Source: Sphaerochaetaceae bacterium (lineage in GTDB: Bacteria > Bacillota > Clostridia > Oscillospirales > CAG-272). Taken from it: 64,000 nt of DNA. This document shows, piece by piece, positions 36,339 to 59,781 of this stretch. Position numbers and translations under genes: made by a program. The stretch is from NCBI GenBank assembly GCA_963656825.1, contig CAVKJG010000003.1, forward strand, positions 2,243 to 66,242, read 5' to 3'. The notes beneath the pieces are model-generated. The model was not told the origin of the DNA. It did not search any database and saw nothing but the letters and a program-made list of their open reading frames with translations. Positions within the stretch are counted from its first letter, which is position 1; every line of letters begins with the position of its first letter.

Positions 36339-38129
36339 TCAATCAAGATCAGCTTTTCTTTTTTTAGAAATAACAACTGCAACTACCACGGCTGCACCGA
36401 TTACAACTACTACACCAACCGTTATATAAATCCAAAGTGCAGATTTCTTAGCTATTGCCTGCTGAGCGATTATTACTTCGCCGCAAACAGAGCAGTGACT
36501 GCCTTCTGTCTTGCCTTCCTTTGAAAGTGTAGGCTCAACCTTTTCATCAACAACGGGAGTGTGTCCCTTAGCGGGAGTAATCACTGTGCCGCAAACCGTA
36601 CATTTCTGAGCTTCTGTACATGTTGCAGCCGCGCCGGGTGTATGCTTTCCTGTAGCGGGAGCTATTTCAGCACCGCATACAGTACATTTCTGAGCTTTCA
36701 CGCATGTAGCAGCTGCGCCGGGAGTGTGTCCCTTGGCGGGAGCAATCACTGTGTCGCAAACCGTACATTTCTGAGCTTCTGTGCAGGTTGCAGCCGCGCC
36801 GGGAGTGTGGCTTGCTTTCGGAGCCAATTCAGCACCGCAAACCGCACACGTCTGAGCTTCTGTGCAACTTGCACCGGGACCATATGTATGACCCTTTGCA
36901 GGAGCTATTTCAACACCACAGACAGTACATTTCTGTCCTTCTGTGCATGTGGCAGCCGCACCGGGAGTGTGGCCCTTTGCCTGACCGAGATTCTTTCCGC
37001 ATACCTTGCATCTCTGAGGTTCTGTGCAGGTTGCTTCCGGACCCGGAGTATGACCTGTTGCCGGAATTCTCTTTTGAGCAACAAGTACTTTTTTACAAAC
37101 CGAGCAATGACTGCCTGCAGTCTTGCCATCGGTTATACAGCTTTCCTCGATTGCAGCATCCTTAACTACTGTATGTCCTGTTGCAGGAACCACTTCCTGA
37201 GCAACAAGAACTTTGTTACATACCGAGCAATGCTTGCCTTCGGTTTTGCCTGCTGTTTCACAGGTAGCCGCCACTGCAGCATCTACCACTTCGGTATGAC
37301 CTTTTTTAGCTATTACAAGTGCTGCTTCTGTTGTTTCTACTTTCTTCTCATCGAAGAATTTACCGCATACAGAGCATTTGTAATATGCTGCCTTACCGTC
37401 GGCTTCACAGGTTGCAGCTACTTCTGCTACAAGTGTGCCGTAGGTATGACCTTTTTTAGCTATTACAAGTGCTGCTTCTGTTGTTTCTACTTTCTTCTCA
37501 TCGAAGAATTTACCGCATACAGAGCATTTGTAATATGCTGCCTTACCGTCGGCTTCACAGGTTGCAGCTACTTCTGCTACAAGTGTGCCGTAGGTATGAA
37601 CATGTCCGGTTGAAACGGACTTAATTGTGGTTGAACCACATGTTATAGTGAAATTGCCGGATGTAGCTTTTCCGGCTGCATCTTTTATAGAAAGATATCC
37701 GTCCTTTGAATATGACGTAATAGTTGTTTCGCCATCAAAGCCTTCGTTAACCTTGAAATTCAAAACAACAAGTTCGCCAGTAAGATTTACTGTATTGTAT
37801 TTTTTGTCGTTTACGTTAACTGCGATAAGGTCGCCGGTGTCAAATGCAGAAACTGCTACATTGCTGTCCGAGGCAAATGCCTTGCCAACCGTGTAGTTAA
37901 CATATGTAAGAGCTTTGTTATCATATATAACATCGGCACCCGCCACCATAAAGCCTGTCGACTCGGAAATCGAAAGGGTTACAGAAACGGTATCGCCGGG
38001 TTTTACCGTCGAGGCAGAAGCCTCGACGGTAAAACTTATTTTGTTTGTGCTTGCCGCAAATGTTGTAAGCGATGTCACCATCACAAGAAGCATTGCCACA
38101 AGCGCTATTATTGTGCGCTTAGTTTTCAT
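36339..38129 (-). CDS. secreted, C-terminally membrane-anchored surface protein: cohesin-like domain plus His/Cys-rich repeat array
   Basis: 596 aa. Signal peptide (MKTKRTIIALVAMLLVMVTSLTTFAAS). Cohesin-like beta-sandwich (ISFTVEASASTVKPGDTVSVTLSISESTGFMVAGADVIYDNKALTYV...). About 13 modules, each starting with GH and holding 3 Cys. C-terminal TM helix (LWIYITVGVVVVIGAAVVVAVVI) followed by KKRK. GGGAGGTG RBS 6 nt after the upstream gene's stop. Confidence 0.7.
   Translation of the reverse strand: MKTKRTIIALVAMLLVMVTSLTTFAASTNKISFTVEASASTVKPGDTVSVTLSISESTGFMVAGADVIYDNKALTYVNYTVGKAFASDSNVAVSAFDTGDLIAVNVNDKKYNTVNLTGELVVLNFKVNEGFDGETTITSYSKDGYLSIKDAAGKATSGNFTITCGSTTIKSVSTGHVHTYGTLVAEVAATCEADGKAAYYKCSVCGKFFDEKKVETTEAALVIAKKGHTYGTLVAEVAATCEADGKAAYYKCSVCGKFFDEKKVETTEAALVIAKKGHTEVVDAAVAATCETAGKTEGKHCSVCNKVLVAQEVVPATGHTVVKDAAIEESCITDGKTAGSHCSVCKKVLVAQKRIPATGHTPGPEATCTEPQRCKVCGKNLGQAKGHTPGAAATCTEGQKCTVCGVEIAPAKGHTYGPGASCTEAQTCAVCGAELAPKASHTPGAAATCTEAQKCTVCDTVIAPAKGHTPGAAATCVKAQKCTVCGAEIAPATGKHTPGAAATCTEAQKCTVCGTVITPAKGHTPVVDEKVEPTLSKEGKTEGSHCSVCGEVIIAQQAIAKKSALWIYITVGVVVVIGAAVVVAVVISKKRKADLD
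36560..37055 (-). repeat. array of six ~81-bp (27-aa) diverged in-frame tandem repeats
   Basis: Protein units GHTPG(A/P)(A/E)ATCTE(A/G/P)Q(K/R)C(T/K)VCG..I(A/T)PAK. The DNA copies are visibly similar, for example 36561-36640 and 36721-36800. Confidence 0.75.
37293..37599 (-). repeat. perfect tandem duplication, 2 x 150 bp (+7 bp), in frame
   Basis: 37293-37442 is identical to 37443-37592, and identity continues to 37599. It encodes HTYGTLVAEVAATCEADGKAAYYKCSVCGKFFDEKKVETTEAALVIAKKG twice. Confidence 0.9.
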
Positions 38130-38143
38130 TCAGCACCTCCCGA

Positions 38144-41100
38144 TTACTCGGCGGCTTTAAGTGTGACTACTATTTCGTCCCAGGTTACTTCACCGGACAG
38201 GTAGTTGTAGAGAAGATCGAAGTCTCTCTGGTCTACTGAACCATCCTTGTTGAGGTCGGCTGCTGCGTCATATTTTCTGTAGTTCTTAAGTCCAAGCAGC
38301 TTGGAAAGGTCGTTGATGTCAACATAACCTGTACCGTCAATATCAGCTATCGGTTTAACTGTTACGTTGCCTTCTTTTTCTGCATCAGCTACGGCAACAG
38401 TTACAGACTCAGCGTCAACGGTGCTGCCGTGTGCTTCGCTTATTGTAATGGTTGTTGTCTTGTTCTCTTTCTTTTCCCCATCGTTTTCGTCCGTTGTATT
38501 CGTGTCACCCACTACGTTGAAGTAGAGATCAATGAGTTTTACTTCGCCGGAGATGTTAACGTTTTCAGATTTGTTTGTTTCTTTGTTGTCTTCAGCGTAA
38601 GCAACAACCTTCACTTCGCCGGTTTCTCTTTTAACAGTAACTTTTTTCTCATCGACTTCTTTTTCTTCCGTCCTTGTTACAGCGTTAGCCTGCATTGTGA
38701 ACAAGCCTTCGGATGCGTTCTCGAATCCTACGAAGCTGAGCATTCCTGCAGCGTACTTAACCGAGAAGTTTGTTCCCCAGATTGCAGAGTCACGAGAGCT
38801 GATGCTTACGGTAACCTTAACCTTACCGGATTCAACGATTTCTGCGCCGGCAACAACTGCGTTGTCAACGGAGATGTTGAGCTTAAGATCGGAAAGCTTG
38901 GGTGTTTCAACTGTTTCTGTTACATCACAGCCTGCACGAGCGCATGCCCAAAGTTCCTTGCCGCCGCTTACTTCTGTTGCCGCAACAAGAGTCTTGCTGA
39001 GCTGCATATCGTGGCCAAGAGCAGCTGTGGGATTTTCAACCTTATATACGGTATTGCACCAATCGCATGTGTAAACAGTGCCGCCTGCCGTTGTGCAAGT
39101 TTCAGTGATTATTTCTATGTTTGAACCTGTTGCTTTATGATCTTCATTTTTTGTAAATGCTATCCGATTAGCTACTGTTTTATTCTTATCAGTTGTTCCG
39201 GCTTTGTACAGCGATGTTTTGCAGGTTGCATTCTGGCAGATTCTGCCCTTCTGGTTGCAAGGATAGAATACGCCCTCCGCGTCCTCATGACCTGTTGCGG
39301 GGATTACTTCGCCGCCAACCTGGTTCTTGCCACACACGCTGCACTTTGTTCCGGCTGTGTTTCCAGACGTTGTGCATGTAGCTGCTACTGCTTTTATTGT
39401 CGTCTTCGAATCGTGAGCCGTTGCAGCAACATATCCGTCAATCCATGATGTTTTGCAAGCGCTGCAGTAATTGTACACATACTTTTCAGCTGCGCAATCT
39501 TTTCCTGCTGTAGCTTCACTGTAATCGCCAAGAACTGTTATTGTTGAAACGCCTTTTGAATCGTGATGATTTGTTGTCGAGACAACCGATTTGCCACTTT
39601 CCAAGCCGCAGACCGTGCAGTACTTATATTTTGTATAACCTTCTGTTGTGCAAGTTGCTGCTTTAGCGGCGACATCTTTCCAGCTATGTGCTGCCGTTAT
39701 AACTGCGGAAGTACCGTTTTCAAGGATACACGCATTGCATACAGAGCACTGATACCAGCCTTCTTTAAGACCGTCTTCCAGTTTTTCGGCTGTATGAACA
39801 GCAGCTTTTGCTGCGCCGCCATTTCCATCTGTTGTGATTGTATGACCGCCGTTTTTCGTTTCGCTTGCTATGAATTCGTCACATACTGCGCAGAAGTAAG
39901 CCGCTGTCTTTGCACCAACCCACTTCTTTGTTATTTTTAAAGTTGTCAGTTCTGCGGCTGTTTTGCTTGCCAAACCTGCAGCCGAAACATCGCCATCGCC
40001 AATTTTTGCACCCTTAGCATAGCTTTGTGAGTTTACCGTAATAGCTTCGTTTGCATAGTACTCATAATGCTCTTCAACTGCGTAAGCCTCAACCTTTTTG
40101 CCGTCGCTGCTCTTTTTAAGGACGTATCCTCCCCCAGTAAAGCCGTCGGGCATTTTGTGGCCATCTGCAGCACCCGATACATAGCTCCATGTCTTCTTGC
40201 AGCTTGTACATGTAGCTGTTGTTATTTCGTCTGTTGTGCAGGTTTTTTGTGTCGTGACTTTTGTCGACACATTATGGCCTTCTGCTTTTACCTTAGCATC
40301 ATGTTCTGTTTTTGTAAGAACGCCGGTTACCGGTGTAAATGCAAGCTTGGGTATTTCTACTGTAGCTGTGCAACCCTCAGTTGTACATGTGTATTTGCCT
40401 GTCTTGGAGCAGGTGGGTTCGTTTTCTTTTTTCAGTTCATAAACGTGTGCAATTTTATCAAGCACTACGCTTACGGACGTTCCGCAGGAGCACTTTCCGG
40501 TAATAACACCGGCTTTTATACATGTTGCAGCTGTTTTTGCACTTTCAGTGTATACTGCATGAACATCTTTTGCTGTAGCTTCTTCCTGCTTCGTGACGTC
40601 TTTTCCGTCAACCTTTACTGTCTCTGTTTTGCCTGCTGTGTTTACATAATTACGCGTTGCAACGCTCCACTCTGTTCCCTTCGCGTTGGGAATTACTTTT
40701 AATGCATTGTAGTCAGCGTCTGTTGTTCTGTATGTTTTTTTCACGGTCTCGCCGTTCAGTTTCCATTCGTAGTCTTCTACATATGACTTTGCTTCAAGCG
40801 AGCAGTTGTCGTTTGTGCAGTACCAGAATGTGAATGCACCGTGCTGGCAGTCTGCGGGGGTTGTGTAAGCAACAGCTTTATGACCCTCAGCTTCAACTGT
40901 TGTTTTTACTTCGCCGGCTTTAACCGCGTCGGCAAGATTAACGGTAATTGATACACCGTTTTCATCTATAACGCTTATAGAGTGTGTTGACGACAAAACG
41001 TCTGTTTCATATGTTCTATAATCTTTATAATCGTCGTTTGTGTCTTTTTCAACGTGAACGCAGTATCTTGTTTCTACCTTTGCCTCTGTGTCTTTATAGC

Positions 41101-42124
41101 TTGATTTGTCATAGCTTACTATAACGTCGCCTTTTTTGTGGATAACGTTTCCGTCTGAATCTGTCACGTCAGCAGGGTATGTAAGATATTCATGACCCGT
41201 GGGGGCGATAACTTCAACTTCGCCTACCTGCGCGCCACACTTTGTGCATACATCACCTATCATTCCGTATGTGGTGCATGTAGCGGGGGTAACTGCTGTC
41301 TTTAATGTCTTGGAATGCTTTGCGGTTATGTTTTTCGCAACGGCTTCCTCGCTCATAAGTGTTGTAGCCGCTTTGTCCGAATATGCCTTGCCGCATTTGC
41401 AGACATAGTACGTTTCCGTAACGCCTTCTGACGTGCAGGTTGCGTCAACTTTCTTTATTTCTGTAACATAGTCTTTGCATGCGTGAACAGGATATACGTT
41501 AACCTCGGTCTCTTTGCCGCATTCGCATACAGCTTTAGCTTTGCCGGGGTTATCCATTGTTGCGTCAGGGGCAACTTCCATGGAAGATATTTCGAACTTA
41601 TGTGTATGAGTTTCGACCCCTGTGCAGCCTTCAACCGTGCATTTACGGGTTTTGCCCGTAGCTGTTTCTGTCCAAGCGCCCCATACGTGATCGCTTGTCT
41701 TAGCGATTTTCAGAGCCTCTTTAACGGCCACTCCATTGATCTGTCCGTCTTTATTCTCTACAGTTCCGTTGAGTCTGACTTTCTTGCATACAACACATTT
41801 TTCGTGTGCAAGAACGCCGTCTTCTCCGCATGTAGCGGGAACTTCTGCGACAAACTCGAATTCCTTGCAGTCGCCAAGCTGTTCTTTTATTTCGTCAATG
41901 AAATGCGCGCCGCAAATATCGCACGCATAAAGTGTGTAGCCGTTTTTGCCGCAGAGGGGCTCAGCGAACTCTTCCGGCGTGTACTTGCAGTTATCTTTTG
42001 TATGTACCGCGCCTGTGCCCGGGCATGTAACTTCAGCGTCCGCTGCGAAAAGCGTTACCGCTGAGCCGAAGCACATGGTAAATGCAAGAAGCAATACAAG
42101 TACTCTTCTTAATTGTTTTTTCAT
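38144..42124 (-). CDS. large secreted surface protein: Cys-rich (CxxC-type) module array, cohesin-like domain, C-terminal dockerin
   Basis: The track lists TTG 42148; ATG 42124 (MKKQLRRVLVLLLAFTMCFGSAVTLFA) has an AGGAGG RBS and gives 1326 aa. Many ATCxxxGxxxxxCxxCG modules. Cohesin-like segment (LKLNISVDNAVVAGAEIVESGKVKVTVSISS...FSVKYAAGMLSFVGF). Dockerin with two EF-hand-like loops (DIDGTGYVDINDL ... DLNKDGSVDQRDF). Confidence 0.75.
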   Translation of the reverse strand: MKKQLRRVLVLLLAFTMCFGSAVTLFAADAEVTCPGTGAVHTKDNCKYTPEEFAEPLCGKNGYTLYACDICGAHFIDEIKEQLGDCKEFEFVAEVPATCGEDGVLAHEKCVVCKKVRLNGTVENKDGQINGVAVKEALKIAKTSDHVWGAWTETATGKTRKCTVEGCTGVETHTHKFEISSMEVAPDATMDNPGKAKAVCECGKETEVNVYPVHACKDYVTEIKKVDATCTSEGVTETYYVCKCGKAYSDKAATTLMSEEAVAKNITAKHSKTLKTAVTPATCTTYGMIGDVCTKCGAQVGEVEVIAPTGHEYLTYPADVTDSDGNVIHKKGDVIVSYDKSSYKDTEAKVETRYCVHVEKDTNDDYKDYRTYETDVLSSTHSISVIDENGVSITVNLADAVKAGEVKTTVEAEGHKAVAYTTPADCQHGAFTFWYCTNDNCSLEAKSYVEDYEWKLNGETVKKTYRTTDADYNALKVIPNAKGTEWSVATRNYVNTAGKTETVKVDGKDVTKQEEATAKDVHAVYTESAKTAATCIKAGVITGKCSCGTSVSVVLDKIAHVYELKKENEPTCSKTGKYTCTTEGCTATVEIPKLAFTPVTGVLTKTEHDAKVKAEGHNVSTKVTTQKTCTTDEITTATCTSCKKTWSYVSGAADGHKMPDGFTGGGYVLKKSSDGKKVEAYAVEEHYEYYANEAITVNSQSYAKGAKIGDGDVSAAGLASKTAAELTTLKITKKWVGAKTAAYFCAVCDEFIASETKNGGHTITTDGNGGAAKAAVHTAEKLEDGLKEGWYQCSVCNACILENGTSAVITAAHSWKDVAAKAATCTTEGYTKYKYCTVCGLESGKSVVSTTNHHDSKGVSTITVLGDYSEATAGKDCAAEKYVYNYCSACKTSWIDGYVAATAHDSKTTIKAVAATCTTSGNTAGTKCSVCGKNQVGGEVIPATGHEDAEGVFYPCNQKGRICQNATCKTSLYKAGTTDKNKTVANRIAFTKNEDHKATGSNIEIITETCTTAGGTVYTCDWCNTVYKVENPTAALGHDMQLSKTLVAATEVSGGKELWACARAGCDVTETVETPKLSDLKLNISVDNAVVAGAEIVESGKVKVTVSISSRDSAIWGTNFSVKYAAGMLSFVGFENASEGLFTMQANAVTRTEEKEVDEKKVTVKRETGEVKVVAYAEDNKETNKSENVNISGEVKLIDLYFNVVGDTNTTDENDGEKKENKTTTITISEAHGSTVDAESVTVAVADAEKEGNVTVKPIADIDGTGYVDINDLSKLLGLKNYRKYDAAADLNKDGSVDQRDFDLLYNYLSGEVTWDEIVVTLKAAE

Positions 42125-42192
42125 GAAAAATTTCCTCCTAATTTTCAAGGCGTTTACGCATTTGTATCGGGCGGATAATTTTCCTTATTTAC

Positions 42193-42216
42193 TACAAAAA
42201 AGTAGACATTTTTTTA
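42193..42216. repeat. left recombination site (hix-like imperfect palindrome, core AG)
   Basis: TACAAAAAAGT-AG-ACATTTTTTTA. It shares CTA(C/T)AAAAAAGTAGAC (15/16 identical) with the reverse complement of the right site. Confidence 0.65.
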
Positions 42217-42226
42217 ACGAAAGGTA

Positions 42227-42255
42227 TTGACAAGAATGGCTATGTATGATATTCT
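42227..42255 (+). promoter_or_regulatory. near-consensus sigma-A promoter inside the invertible segment, currently facing away from the surface-protein operon
   Basis: TTGACA (42227-42232), 17-nt spacer, TGaTATTCT extended -10 (42247-42255). Confidence 0.55.
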
Positions 42256-42307
42256 TGAATGGAACAATGGCGGTCAATCACGCATTGAAGGTCGGTATTT
42301 TCAGCGC

Positions 42308-42331
42308 TATAAAAAAGTCTACTTTTTTATA
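42308..42331. repeat. right recombination site (hix-like palindrome, core CT)
   Basis: TATAAAAAAGT-CT-ACTTTTTTATA has perfect 11-bp inverted arms around a 2-bp asymmetric core. It ends 7 bp from the recombinase stop codon. Confidence 0.7.
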
Positions 42332-42338
42332 GGCTTTT

Positions 42339-42956
<618 letters not shown>

Positions 42957-43103
42957 CTATCTGTAAACGTACCTCCTTGGTGTGAATTATACACACAACC
43001 TGTAAATTATTCAGCACCAAAAGATAAAAAGTCACAAACAAATTACGAAAAATACAAAATTATCTTCGCAAAATTCCACGAAAACAAAAACGTCCGTAAC
43101 CAC

Positions 43104-43130
43104 AAAAACCCCGCCGTCAGCGGGGTTTTT
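43104..43130. terminator. bidirectional intrinsic terminator
   Basis: AAAAACCCCGCCGTCAGCGGGGTTTTT, nearly identical to the hairpin at 36221-36247. Confidence 0.65.
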
Positions 43131-43138
43131 GTTATGTT

Positions 43139-43357
43139 TCAATCAAGCTCTTTCTTCCGTATGTCCGAAAGCTTCTCTATTGTTCCGTCCGGACGTTTTA
43201 TAACCGTATTTTCCAGCTGTCCGGCAAAGCTCGCGCGGAAACGTCTGCGGAATTCGTCGCGCAGCTTTATCTGCTCCGCTTTTTCCTCCTCGGTAAGTCC
43301 TTCCGATTTTTCCTTATGGGCAAGATCGTTTATTCTTCTTGTGAGTTCGTCTTTCAT
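43139..43357 (-). CDS. DUF896 (UPF0291, YnzC-like) small protein
   Basis: MKDELTRRINDLAHKEKSEGLTEEEKAEQIKLRDEFRRRFRASFAGQLENT... matches the typical DUF896 pattern. ATG 43357 has an AAAGGAAG RBS; the track's start at 43393 is unlikely. Confidence 0.7.
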   Translation of the reverse strand: MKDELTRRINDLAHKEKSEGLTEEEKAEQIKLRDEFRRRFRASFAGQLENTVIKRPDGTIEKLSDIRKKELD

Positions 43358-45113: not shown

Positions 45114-45166
45114 TGATGTGTATACAGGCTTACAGCTGAATATTTTTAATGAGGATAGATAAATAT

Positions 45167-45934
45167 ATGAAAAAATTTGCTGCTTTATTTCTTGTTCTTA
45201 CGTTTATAGTTGCCTGCGCGGCAGCCTGCAAAAAGAATCCCGCCAACCCCGATGTGACCGTCGGAACAACTACAACGGAATCCGCCGCGACAACCGGCAC
45301 CAAGGGCACGGAGACCACCGAAACGACTCCCGCTGAAACGACAACGACCTCCGCCGCAAGATTTACGGAAGTAAAGGACGGCGATTTCTCTTACAGAATA
45401 CTCAAGGATGACGACGGCAAATATTACGCCGTGGCAGTTATCAACTGGTCGGGAAGCGACGAAGCGCTCGTTGTCCCCTCCACATACACATACAAGGGTA
45501 CAACCTATGATATAACGACAATAGGCGTTCTCGGTAATATCGGCGGCAGTAACGGACTTATGTCGGTAAAGGAGCTTACCATTCCGTCAACGGTCAAAAC
45601 AATAAATTCCGTTGCCTTTTTCAGTGCGCTCAAGCTTGAAAAAATCAACTTCTCCGAAGGTCTTGAATCCATCGGCGAAATGGCTTTCTGGCTTTGCGGA
45701 AGCCTTAAAGAACTTACTCTTCCCTCAACGCTTAAAGAGATCGGTCAGAATGCTTTTCAGGGTTGCGAATCGATAGAATCCATAACGGTTCCCTCCTCCG
45801 TAACGACGATAGGCGCGGGCGCGTTCTCCGGCTGCTCGTCGCTCAAAACGATAACTCTTCCCGAAGCGTTCCGCGCTCAGGAAGCCGAGCTTTTCAACGG
45901 CTCTCCAAACGTCCAGATAACCTACGTCGGCTGA
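45167..45934 (+). CDS. BspA-type leucine-rich-repeat lipoprotein
   Basis: ATG 45167 (MKKFAALFLVLTFIVACAAAC) has a GAGGA RBS and a lipobox. Thr-rich linker, then repeats of the type LTIPSTVKTINSVAFFSALKLEKINFSEGLESIGEMAF. Confidence 0.7.
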   Translation: MKKFAALFLVLTFIVACAAACKKNPANPDVTVGTTTTESAATTGTKGTETTETTPAETTTTSAARFTEVKDGDFSYRILKDDDGKYYAVAVINWSGSDEALVVPSTYTYKGTTYDITTIGVLGNIGGSNGLMSVKELTIPSTVKTINSVAFFSALKLEKINFSEGLESIGEMAFWLCGSLKELTLPSTLKEIGQNAFQGCESIESITVPSSVTTIGAGAFSGCSSLKTITLPEAFRAQEAELFNGSPNVQITYVG

Positions 45935-58641: not shown

Positions 58642-59781
58642 ATGGAACAGATATCAAGAATTTCGTTTCCCGGACTCGGGATAGGCGAATTTTCGGTTGA
58701 CAATGTGGCGTTTACCGTTTTCGGCAGACCTGTCATGTGGTACGGCGTGATAATTTGCATAGGAATAATTCTTTCGTTTTCGTATTTTGCATATCGCGCG
58801 GGAAAAGCCGGAATAAAATTCGACGACGTTATAGACACAACGCTGTTTGCGGTCCCTGCCGGAATTATCGGCGCAAGACTTTATTACGTTATATTCTACG
58901 GCAACGTCCATTCGTTTTATGACGTTATCGCCATATGGAACGGCGGTCTTGCCATATACGGCGGAATAATCGGCGGCGCAATAGCGGTTATTCTGGTATC
59001 GCTTTATAAAAAGATAGACTTTTTCAAATATGCGGATATGATAATTCCCGGGGTTATGATAGGTCAGCTTCTTGGCAGATGGGGAAACTTTTTCAACGGC
59101 GAAGCCTATGGCGGAATCGTTTCCGAATCGCACCCCTTGTATTTTCTCCGCATGGGACTGCAGAACGGGAACACCTACAGCGATTTTGCAACCGCCGATA
59201 TGGTTTTCGTCCATCCCACGTTCCTTTACGAGTCGGTATGGAATCTTATCGGATTTATTCTGATAAACGTATTTTATAAAAAGAAAAAGTTCGGCGGCGA
59301 GGTGCTTTTGTGGTATCTCGGCTGGTACGGCTTCGGAAGATTTTTCATAGAACAGCTCCGGACGGATTCTCTTTACCTCGGAAACACCGGAATAAGAGTT
59401 TCGGCACTGCTCGGAATGGTGCTGTTTGTGATATCGCTGCCGCTTACGGTGGTATTTCATGTTCTTGCCGCAAAGAAAGAAAAAGAAGGAAAAATAAGAC
59501 GCAGCTACGATGTTTCCATCCCGTATTTCTTCGGAATAGGAAAGAGCGGATACGAAGCGCCCGAAACCGATTCTTCGGTTGATTTCGATACTGCAGAATT
59601 TGAAAAAAACGAGGCGGAAAGCGACAAAGCGCTCCGCCGCGCAAGCTCGAAAAAGGATCTTTTCATGGCGGACGAGAGCAAGGACGAAGAAGCTCCGCCG
59701 ATAAAGGTCGTTTTGAAAAAGCAAGAAAAAGACGCGCCCGAAAAATCAGACGGAGAAAACGAAGATGGCAAAGATAATTGA
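58642..59781 (+). CDS. lgt: prolipoprotein diacylglyceryl transferase with ~100-aa charged C-terminal extension
   Basis: Lgt core (WYGVIICIGIIL...GARLYYV...WNGGLAIYGGIIGG...GRWGNFFNGEAYG...HPTFLYES). The tail is rich in K/E/D. Confidence 0.8.
   Translation: MEQISRISFPGLGIGEFSVDNVAFTVFGRPVMWYGVIICIGIILSFSYFAYRAGKAGIKFDDVIDTTLFAVPAGIIGARLYYVIFYGNVHSFYDVIAIWNGGLAIYGGIIGGAIAVILVSLYKKIDFFKYADMIIPGVMIGQLLGRWGNFFNGEAYGGIVSESHPLYFLRMGLQNGNTYSDFATADMVFVHPTFLYESVWNLIGFILINVFYKKKKFGGEVLLWYLGWYGFGRFFIEQLRTDSLYLGNTGIRVSALLGMVLFVISLPLTVVFHVLAAKKEKEGKIRRSYDVSIPYFFGIGKSGYEAPETDSSVDFDTAEFEKNEAESDKALRRASSKKDLFMADESKDEEAPPIKVVLKKQEKDAPEKSDGENEDGKDN

Follow-up and report, generated by a model that had tools for sequence, protein, structure and literature searches.

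The 64,000-nucleotide (nt) stretch of contig CAVKJG010000003.1 analyzed here (assembly GCA_963656825.1; hereafter the window, with positions counted from its first letter) contains a 113-base-pair (bp) segment that occurs in both orientations among closely related assemblies. The segment lies between the gene of a small serine recombinase and an operon encoding a dockerin protein and a cohesin protein, and it carries a promoter-like site that faces the recombinase gene in the window (OFF) and the operon in the flipped form (ON). We consider it very probable that the locus is a phase-variation switch, or inverton, in which the recombinase drives the flip of a promoter segment in front of the cohesin/dockerin operon. 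A first-pass annotation, made by a model from the letters alone, had proposed an invertible promoter switch beside a Hin-type invertase; the mechanism proved essentially right, but the family label of the recombinase was wrong. The features of the locus are as follows.

36186-36153, minus strand: operon terminator.
36339-38129, minus strand: operon gene 2; its product of 596 amino acids (aa) carries a signal peptide, a cohesin and Cys-rich repeats and ends in a transmembrane anchor.
38144-42124, minus strand: operon gene 1; its secreted product of 1326 aa carries a signal peptide, Cys-rich repeats and, at the C-terminus, a dockerin that contains two Ca-loop repeats.
42192-42217: site D, operon-proximal, a 26-bp imperfect palindrome reading CTACAAAAAAGT-AG-ACATTTTTTTAA on the plus strand, core AG at 42204-42205.
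42206-42318: invertible segment, 113 bp between the core dinucleotides, present as the exact reverse complement in five related assemblies.
42227-42255, plus strand: sigma-70-type promoter-like site, TTGACA-17 nt-TG-n-TATTCT, facing the recombinase gene, predicted start near 42262.
42303-42346, plus strand: terminator-like element for OFF-state transcripts leaving the segment toward the recombinase gene, site P hairpin followed by UUUUUUAUUUU.
42307-42332: site P, recombinase-proximal, a perfect 12+2+12 palindrome reading CTATAAAAAAGT-CT-ACTTTTTTATAG, core CT at 42319-42320.
42339-42935, minus strand: small serine recombinase gene, 198 aa, PF00239 resolvase domain (E 1.5e-27).

The segment is present in both orientations

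An inverted-repeat search of the find_repeats type returned arms at 42192-42219 and 42305-42332 (28 nt, 86% complementary), which hold sites D and P. Both are hix-like 26-bp sites with 12-bp inverted half-sites and asymmetric 2-bp AG/CT cores, in inverted orientation and 115 bp apart from center to center. In their 24-nt form they read TACAAAAAAGT-AG-ACATTTTTTTA (42193-42216) and TATAAAAAAGT-CT-ACTTTTTTATA (42308-42331). The two sites, their complementary cores and their inverted orientation had been annotated in the first pass, and the coordinates hold to within 1 bp. The right-hand site, described then as a perfect palindrome apart from its core, extends to the full 12+2+12, and the 15/16 identity claimed between the sites was reproduced by comparing CTACAAAAAAGTAGAC with the reverse complement of 42317-42332. 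Searching the whole 64-kb window with the site pattern gave 3 matches, at D and P, against approximately 0.02 expected by chance (a ~150-fold excess). The window holds only this one site pair, and no second recombinase or second switch was found within it. Another site-like match, at 59005-59025, had three mismatches, lay inside a coding region and lacked a partner, and was rejected as a chance match.

We compared 17 independent assemblies from one species-level clade, in which the recombinases were 96-98% identical in protein and 90-98% in DNA. The assemblies were obtained through near-identical recombinases (P0001-P0004), the neighboring 72-aa DUF896 protein, a genome collection and a metagenome DNA scan. 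They were compared by alignment; a 20-mer k-mer screen missed diverged relatives. Scans with a 19-mer of the segment recovered, among genome contigs, only the same species plus one chance match in Verrucomicrobiales; of their 7 matches among metagenome contigs, 4 were real (all OFF) and 3 were chance. The loci (handles beginning with L) fell into three arrangements.

Window orientation, promoter facing the recombinase gene, 11/17: the window, L001, L081, L083-85, L097 and L102-105.
Exact reverse complement, promoter facing the operon, 5/17: L082, L086, L089, L090 and L091, with flanks unchanged.
Compound rearrangement, 1/17: L092.

An inverted-repeat-flanked segment is therefore present in both orientations relative to fixed flanks, which is what a PhaseFinder-type criterion asks of an inverton. 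In L097 (OFF) and L089-91 (ON), the flanks are ~99% identical to those of the window and the segments are identical at 111/113 positions after flipping. The ON and OFF states are each present in at least two sub-lineages of the species and, therefore, the flip happened repeatedly. Both forms also came from independent sources (ENA, Logan and NCBI). These near-identical strains bear out the earlier proposal that the segment is invertible and that the window captures its OFF, promoter-away state.

The two palindromes could instead be terminators or protein operators of the recombinase gene that resemble each other by coincidence, in which case nothing would invert. The position of the right site, a perfect palindrome 6 bp past the stop codon and followed by a T-run on the plus strand, would suit such a role. 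However, this explanation is refuted by the flipped segment directly observed in five related assemblies, and the ~150-fold excess of the site pattern in the window also speaks against it. We give it practically no credence.

Comparing the two forms placed the crossover at the centers of the sites. The outer half-sites stay where they are and the inner half-sites (42206-42217 in D) exchange place and strand, as expected for breakage and rejoining at the site center. Read from the recombinase gene toward the operon, the half-sites are as follows.

OFF: P = CTATAAAAAAGT-AG-ACTTTTTTATAG; D = CTAAAAAAATGT-CT-ACTTTTTTGTAG.
ON: P' = ...GT-AG-ACATTTTTTTAG; D' = CTATAAAAAAGT-CT-ACTTTTTTGTAG.

The compound rearrangement in L092 involves a further, degenerate site within the recombinase gene.

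42656-42681: pseudo-site X, inside the recombinase coding sequence, reading AGAAAAAAAGAT-AG-ACATTTCAATAA on the minus strand.

The core of X is oriented like that of P and is inverted relative to that of D, which predicts inversion between X and D. In L092 (ENA ERZ15610573 NODE_21092, 1240-1730), the order is the 5' part of the recombinase gene, the segment, the inverted 3' part of the recombinase gene and the operon. This order fits the outcome expected if an ON form had undergone a second inversion, of D with X. The X/P junction narrows the exchange to the 4 bp AGAC, central AG included, which fits the 2-bp staggered cut of a serine recombinase, the kind of cut that the first pass had cited for Hin, Gin and Cin. 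The event splits and destroys the recombinase gene, making the rearrangement a self-inactivating one that freezes the switch.

Recombinase genes were also interrupted by nonsense mutations. In L083-85 (three samples, OFF) codon 2 has changed from AAA to TAA, and in L086 (ON) codon 176 has changed from GAA to TAA, with loss of the last 23 residues and, with them, the recognition helix of the helix-turn-helix. These are candidate naturally locked strains, judging from their genes. The unrelated L086 (3770-3800) and L092 (1355-1385), both with disrupted recombinases, share the same 1-bp insertion after the core (GTCTAAC versus GTCTAC), which may have been left by aberrant recombination, may lock the switch or may be coincidental.

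A resolvase-like recombinase and its cassette family

The first-pass annotation of a 198-aa small serine recombinase beside the right site was confirmed by the PF00239 domain, and the stop codon lies six bases from the 26-bp site P. The protein contains the motifs YVRVSS (with the catalytic serine) and SIDRLGRN, and it has the S, R and D-R-x-x-R catalytic motifs of the Sin/beta type. A weak HTH_28 match marks a C-terminal helix-turn-helix (residues 162-196). Its best match among all solved structures was the Sin/Bin3 resolvase of Tn552 (2r0q, E 7e-32, residues 4-158), followed by Tn3/gamma-delta resolvases (E ~1e-17) and by Gin (4m6f and 3uj3, E ~1e-13). The Mpi family model NCBIfam NF009949 gave 38.4 bits against a cut-off of 272, which places the protein outside that family. 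Given that Sin/Bin3 is far closer than Gin or Mpi, the enzyme looks like a resolvase-clade (Sin-like) protein recruited for inversion, and the Hin-type label cannot stand. The exact protein of the window was not on record in a protein look-up. Plasmid homologues in Enterococcus and Bacillus are ~49% identical; two of them (L106 and L107) were rejected as members of the cassette family described below, having no paired palindromic sites downstream.

The cassette is conserved well beyond the species. We assembled a family sample of 79 loci from other Clostridia (Acutalibacteraceae, Oscillospiraceae, Lachnospiraceae and Ruminococcus), plus one Synergistales locus, with recombinases 59-68% identical to that of the window; 67 loci had enough downstream sequence. 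The same cassette directly followed the gene in 51/67 loci, compared with 0/71 upstream control regions and 1/61 far downstream. Its layout consists of the gene stop, usually 10-35 bp, a 26-bp palindromic site and a second site 114-198 bp further, with a consensus half-site of approximately yTrTCAAAAGGT. Cores were reverse-complementary in 53/53 pairs and were mostly GT/AC, with some AA/TT, TC/GA and AG/CT. In the window, the A-rich stretch that lies upstream of P looks like a half-site, but it was rejected as an accessory half-site on account of its inconsistency across the family.

Site structure in the family followed the direction of the promoter-like motif. Where the motif faced the recombinase gene, both sites were full palindromes with differing outer triplets (18/19 loci), and where it faced the cargo both were hybrids (5/5 loci); the promoter-direction call is wrong for at least L027 (oriented as L039 is) and probably for L046. 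Flipped homologues in front of the same cargo gene were found in other lineages too, for example when L037 was compared with L024/30/32 (84-86% identical once flipped), L004/18 with L006/11, and L022 with L008. The cargo is varied, including collagen-repeat, LRR_5, VWA, Cna_B and dockerin proteins as well as TIR, SLOG, FtsK-like and helicase-associated ones. Family loci number roughly 500 or more, and cultured carriers of the cassette include Chakrabartyella piscis BP5G (NZ_CP092441, L067), Lachnospiraceae bacterium M18-1 (L114), Dorea sp. 5-2 (L186) and Lachnospiraceae bacterium isolate B84_9_MI_BP (L046).

Several loci departed from the common form. Palindromic core dinucleotides (GC, AT and TA) occur in L019, L165, L170 and L120; such cores should remove site polarity for a serine recombinase, and both inversion and deletion would then be allowed. 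L006 and L063 are two complete cassettes with the same AA/TT cores, ~11 kb apart on one contig (JBGUUB010000053.1). Genomes can therefore carry several copies, and cross-talk is possible. In L045 (DCIE01000037.1, 4628-4754), a run of N lies exactly between the two sites and may reflect a scaffold gap or masking; if the gap is real, an assembler that failed to resolve mixed orientations would account for it. Among recombinases of the Lachnospiraceae/Acetatifactor clade (69-85% identical to L077), about one in five has paired palindromic sites directly downstream, and the remaining ones may use different sites or do another job.

Site spacing in the family is quantized. Spacings fell into classes of 114-115, 124-127, 134-137, 145-147, 156-158, 165-169, 176-178, 187-191 and 198 bp. 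A Rayleigh scan peaked at 10.4 bp (R = 0.82, n = 53), compared with a null maximum of 0.41 in 2000 random sets, and counting each distinct spacing once gave R = 0.76 against a null maximum of 0.53. A second sample, centered on a Lachnospiraceae relative (L110-L187), gave R = 0.64 at the pre-specified 10.4-bp period (n = 16, p ~0.0015); p-values for phasing are rough, given the relatedness of the loci. Even so, the near lack of spacings in between the nine classes is otherwise hard to explain. This quantization implies that both sites need to lie on one face of the helix, as would follow from synapsis via a very small loop, and phased spacing would be a requirement of such a torsionally constrained loop.

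We also considered whether the two orientations might be rare fixed inversions between strains, or assembly artefacts at inverted repeats, rather than the product of a programmed switch. The comparison rests on consensus assemblies, and some strains carry inactivated recombinase genes, both of which leave room for this view. Nevertheless, perfect identity between the arms spans only 12 bp, which is too short for RecA-type recombination and below assembler k-mers, and the exchange point is always at the site center. Flips occurred independently in at least two sub-lineages of the species and in at least three other species groups, and both forms were recovered from ENA, Logan and NCBI. A dedicated serine recombinase gene lies close by, and the cores are complementary in every one of the 53 pairs. 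Taken with these observations, fixed inversion or artefact is a very improbable account.

Putative promoter and terminator, and the proposed states of the operon

The promoter-like site at 42227-42255 matches the consensus at 10/12 positions and has the TG in addition. It scores above 200 shuffles of the segment (p <= 0.005), and comparable motifs are over-represented among the segments of 53 family loci (Fisher p 8e-18). Near the operon start it is the sole such match, with none on the minus strand in 42125-42192. The first-pass annotation had named this motif, its direction away from the operon and the lack of another convincing promoter in 42125-42192, and each of these was found. After the flip, the predicted start (~42262) lies ~138 nt upstream of the ATG at 42124, compared with the ~140 nt proposed, and the flipped state is the one seen in five assemblies. 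Two open reading frames across the site were rejected as genes. A 129-aa frame (42227-42616, plus strand) has its start between the two promoter hexamers (-35 and -10) and continues antisense across the recombinase gene, and a 41-aa frame called in L086 likewise starts between the hexamers.

A transcript leaving the OFF segment would meet site P. As plus-strand RNA, the P hairpin folds at -13 kcal/mol (z -4.8) in the OFF state, whereas folding is weak for the ON-state hybrid P' of L089 (-5.2 kcal/mol, z -0.2). Across the family, the P palindrome reaches 3.6 bp past the 26-bp site in OFF (promoter-away) loci and 0.4 bp past it in ON loci (p 1e-4). Before P comes an A-run (7.2/12 bases versus a background of 4.5). 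These results suggest that the OFF-state promoter is insulated by the P terminator and that there is no equivalent block after the exit site in the ON state. A search of Rfam found no family in the switch; weak matches at 43060-43210 correspond to the DUF896 terminator.

The difference between the two P hairpins raises the question of whether the main payload of a real inversion is the terminator tail or control of the recombinase, and not the promoter. In one version the P hairpin would block one state and the other would allow read-through from the recombinase promoter; in another, the outward promoter of the OFF state would make an antisense or short RNA that tunes recombinase expression. 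The recombinase gene and the operon point the same way and are separated by only 215 bp, the extended P palindrome occurs only in the promoter-away state across the family, and many family members (e.g., L076, L015 and L068) have a T-run after P inside the segment, all of which would be in keeping with this idea, as would the change in hairpin stability. However, the hairpin of the window has no U-tract in the recombinase-to-operon direction, making it a poor terminator of read-through, and the promoter-like motif is enriched in the segments, with a direction that correlates with site state. A different main payload is unlikely in our judgment, although the two ideas are not exclusive, the promoter switch already having a terminator element.

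In the promoter switch that we favor, the adjacent recombinase would catalyze inversion by binding the two inverted 26-bp sites as dimers, 115 bp apart from center to center. Once bound, the sites would come together in a synapse by way of a tight loop of DNA, and both would be cut with a 2-bp stagger at the AG/CT core, their halves rotated and religated, leaving the 113-bp segment inverted. In the OFF state, the promoter would fire toward the recombinase gene and its transcript would stop after ~80 nt at a hairpin plus U-tract; this predicted terminator, specific to OFF, would be formed by the perfect palindrome of site P together with the fixed A-run outside it, and the operon would presumably be silent. 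In the ON state, the promoter would face the operon with a leader of ~138 nt, both sites would be hybrids and the exit site would lack a U-tract. With the promoter facing the operon and no U-tract after the exit site, the operon proteins would be made, namely a membrane-anchored cohesin protein and its dockerin-bearing partner. Promoter and terminator are predicted to be active as drawn, and switching to be reversible and to recur at an appreciable rate.

A number of points weigh against this interpretation. No accessory site or enhancer was identified; no accessory repeats were recognized, and no enhancer model was applied. A separation of 115 bp makes a very short loop, which probably needs a DNA-bending protein. 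Strict site pairs were present in only 16/74 loci of the second sample, hence not all relatives of the recombinase are invertases of this type. The comparison of orientations covers assembled contigs, between assemblies, and mixed orientations within one population, with frequent and reversible switching, are a prediction. Nonsense alleles of the recombinase in 4/17 assemblies imply that the switch may be frozen, not active, in some strains. The promoter is a consensus match only, and its -10 element is imperfect (TATTCT; TATCCT in relatives). Finally, no U-tract follows the P hairpin of the window when it is read from the recombinase gene toward the operon, so transcription may continue out of that gene, and the operon may get some read-through from the recombinase promoter in both states.

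Two elements upstream of the recombinase gene concern its own transcription.

43006-43035, minus strand: candidate promoter of the recombinase gene, GTGACT-18-AATAAT, a weak consensus match.
43102-43132: strong bidirectional terminator between the DUF896 and recombinase genes, with a 13-bp stem, 7 GC pairs and A-/T-runs on its flanks.

Because of this bidirectional terminator, the recombinase must have its own promoter in 42936-43100.

The operon begins with AGGAGG 9 nt before the ATG at 42124. The dockerin of gene 1 matched Dockerin_1 with E 8e-4, below Pfam's cut-off, and DxDxDG-type loops are visible in the sequence; the cohesin of gene 2 matched PF00963 (E 1.2e-8). Both proteins are full of short Cys-containing repeats of ~30-45 aa with the form ...ATC...G...CxVCG.... 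The repeats resemble zinc ribbons or treble clefs, with weak DUF7128 and RYYR-CCHC matches, and are unusual as an extracellular repeat. Three genes from the recombinase gene, on the opposite strand (45149-45934, plus), lies the gene for a 261-aa BspA-type leucine-rich-repeat (LRR_5) protein. This is another likely surface protein and adjoins the locus in related strains too.

Known switches and the meaning of the cassette

The locus shares several features with the Hin, Gin, Cin and Pin systems (Salmonella H-segment, Mu G-segment and P1 C-segment), including a small serine recombinase (~190-200 aa, helix-turn-helix at the C-terminus) and inverted 26-bp sites in which inverted half-sites of 12 bp each enclose an asymmetric 2-bp core. 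As in the Hin system, the promoter of a surface structure would be flipped. Unlike in these systems, however, the recombinase belongs outside the Hin clade (Gin 1e-13 versus Sin 7e-32), the segment measures 113 bp versus their 1-4 kb, the recombinase gene lies outside the segment and site spacing is helically phased. Fis is not expected in Clostridia, and Hin-style control by Fis and an enhancer is unlikely there.

By sequence, the closest relatives of the recombinase are the Sin, Bin3 (Tn552) and beta-type resolvases of Firmicute plasmids and transposons (2r0q). Those enzymes act on directly repeated res sites with accessory sites and resolve multimers or cointegrates, whereas here the sites are inverted and bracket a promoter-like site, inversion products are observed, the cassette is chromosomal and accessory repeats were not recognized. 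The beta recombinase can invert as well as resolve, helped by an HU-like protein.

The invertons of Bacteroides fragilis capsular polysaccharides, flipped by Mpi, likewise combine a serine-type invertase with short promoter segments (~170-230 bp) before surface-structure operons in a gut anaerobe. There the result is a population mix of ON and OFF cells, as would be predicted here. However, Mpi is a master invertase that serves many dispersed loci, in contrast to what appears here to be one recombinase gene per switch in a fixed cassette. The recombinase also falls far short of the Mpi family (38 bits versus a cut-off of 272), the site sequences differ, and the promoter is sigma-70-like, not of the Bacteroides type. 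Like PhaseFinder-type invertons in general and the RecV switches of Clostridioides difficile (flgB, cwpV and cmrRST), the locus has short inverted repeats around a regulatory segment upstream of surface or motility genes, but RecV is a tyrosine recombinase acting at several loci.

Invertons have been widely catalogued, Clostridia-like Firmicutes included (PMC11892184, PMC11602134). Of the Clostridia inverton groups in the hCom2 survey, the one most strongly linked to an invertase was associated with tyrosine recombinases (PMC11892184). According to a 2026 paper, small serine recombinases are markers of anti-phage defence genes in Bacillota; the paper leaves the role of the recombinase open, naming inversion only as a possibility (PMC13552941). 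In the literature searched, with subscription-only papers outside its scope, we found no description of a Sin-like cassette family or its palindromic sites, no phased spacing of inverton sites and no phase variation of cohesin/dockerin proteins. The family-level features appear to be undescribed in that literature and may deserve their own study.

Invertible promoters are a main source of surface variation in gut bacteria, and mechanistic knowledge of them comes almost entirely from Bacteroides (Mpi and tyrosine recombinases), enterobacteria (Hin and FimB/E) and C. difficile (RecV). The present locus would place a cohesin/dockerin surface assembly under an ON/OFF switch in an uncultured Clostridia species (order Eubacteriales/Oscillospirales), with a switch enzyme that appears to descend from resolvase-type (Sin-like) small serine recombinases. 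The 10.4-bp quantization seen across the family offers a clean, testable rule for how serine recombinases synapse sites barely 115 bp apart, and the compact cassette (~800 bp for gene, sites, promoter and terminator) could serve as a genetic memory part for Firmicutes.

More tentatively, and with somewhat less than even confidence, we suggest that the cassettes make up a large family of self-contained, Fis-free switches in gut Clostridia, each with a dedicated invertase related to Sin/beta, 26-bp palindromic sites a whole number of helical turns apart (115 to 198 bp, in ~10.4-bp steps), an internal promoter, an asymmetric flank that makes the recombinase-proximal site a terminator in one orientation, and diverse cargo, and that they provide a mechanistic reason for the linkage of recombinases with defence. 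The diversity of the cargo may explain why small serine recombinases mark defence genes, and inversion of such cassettes could be part of the answer to the question left open in PMC13552941.

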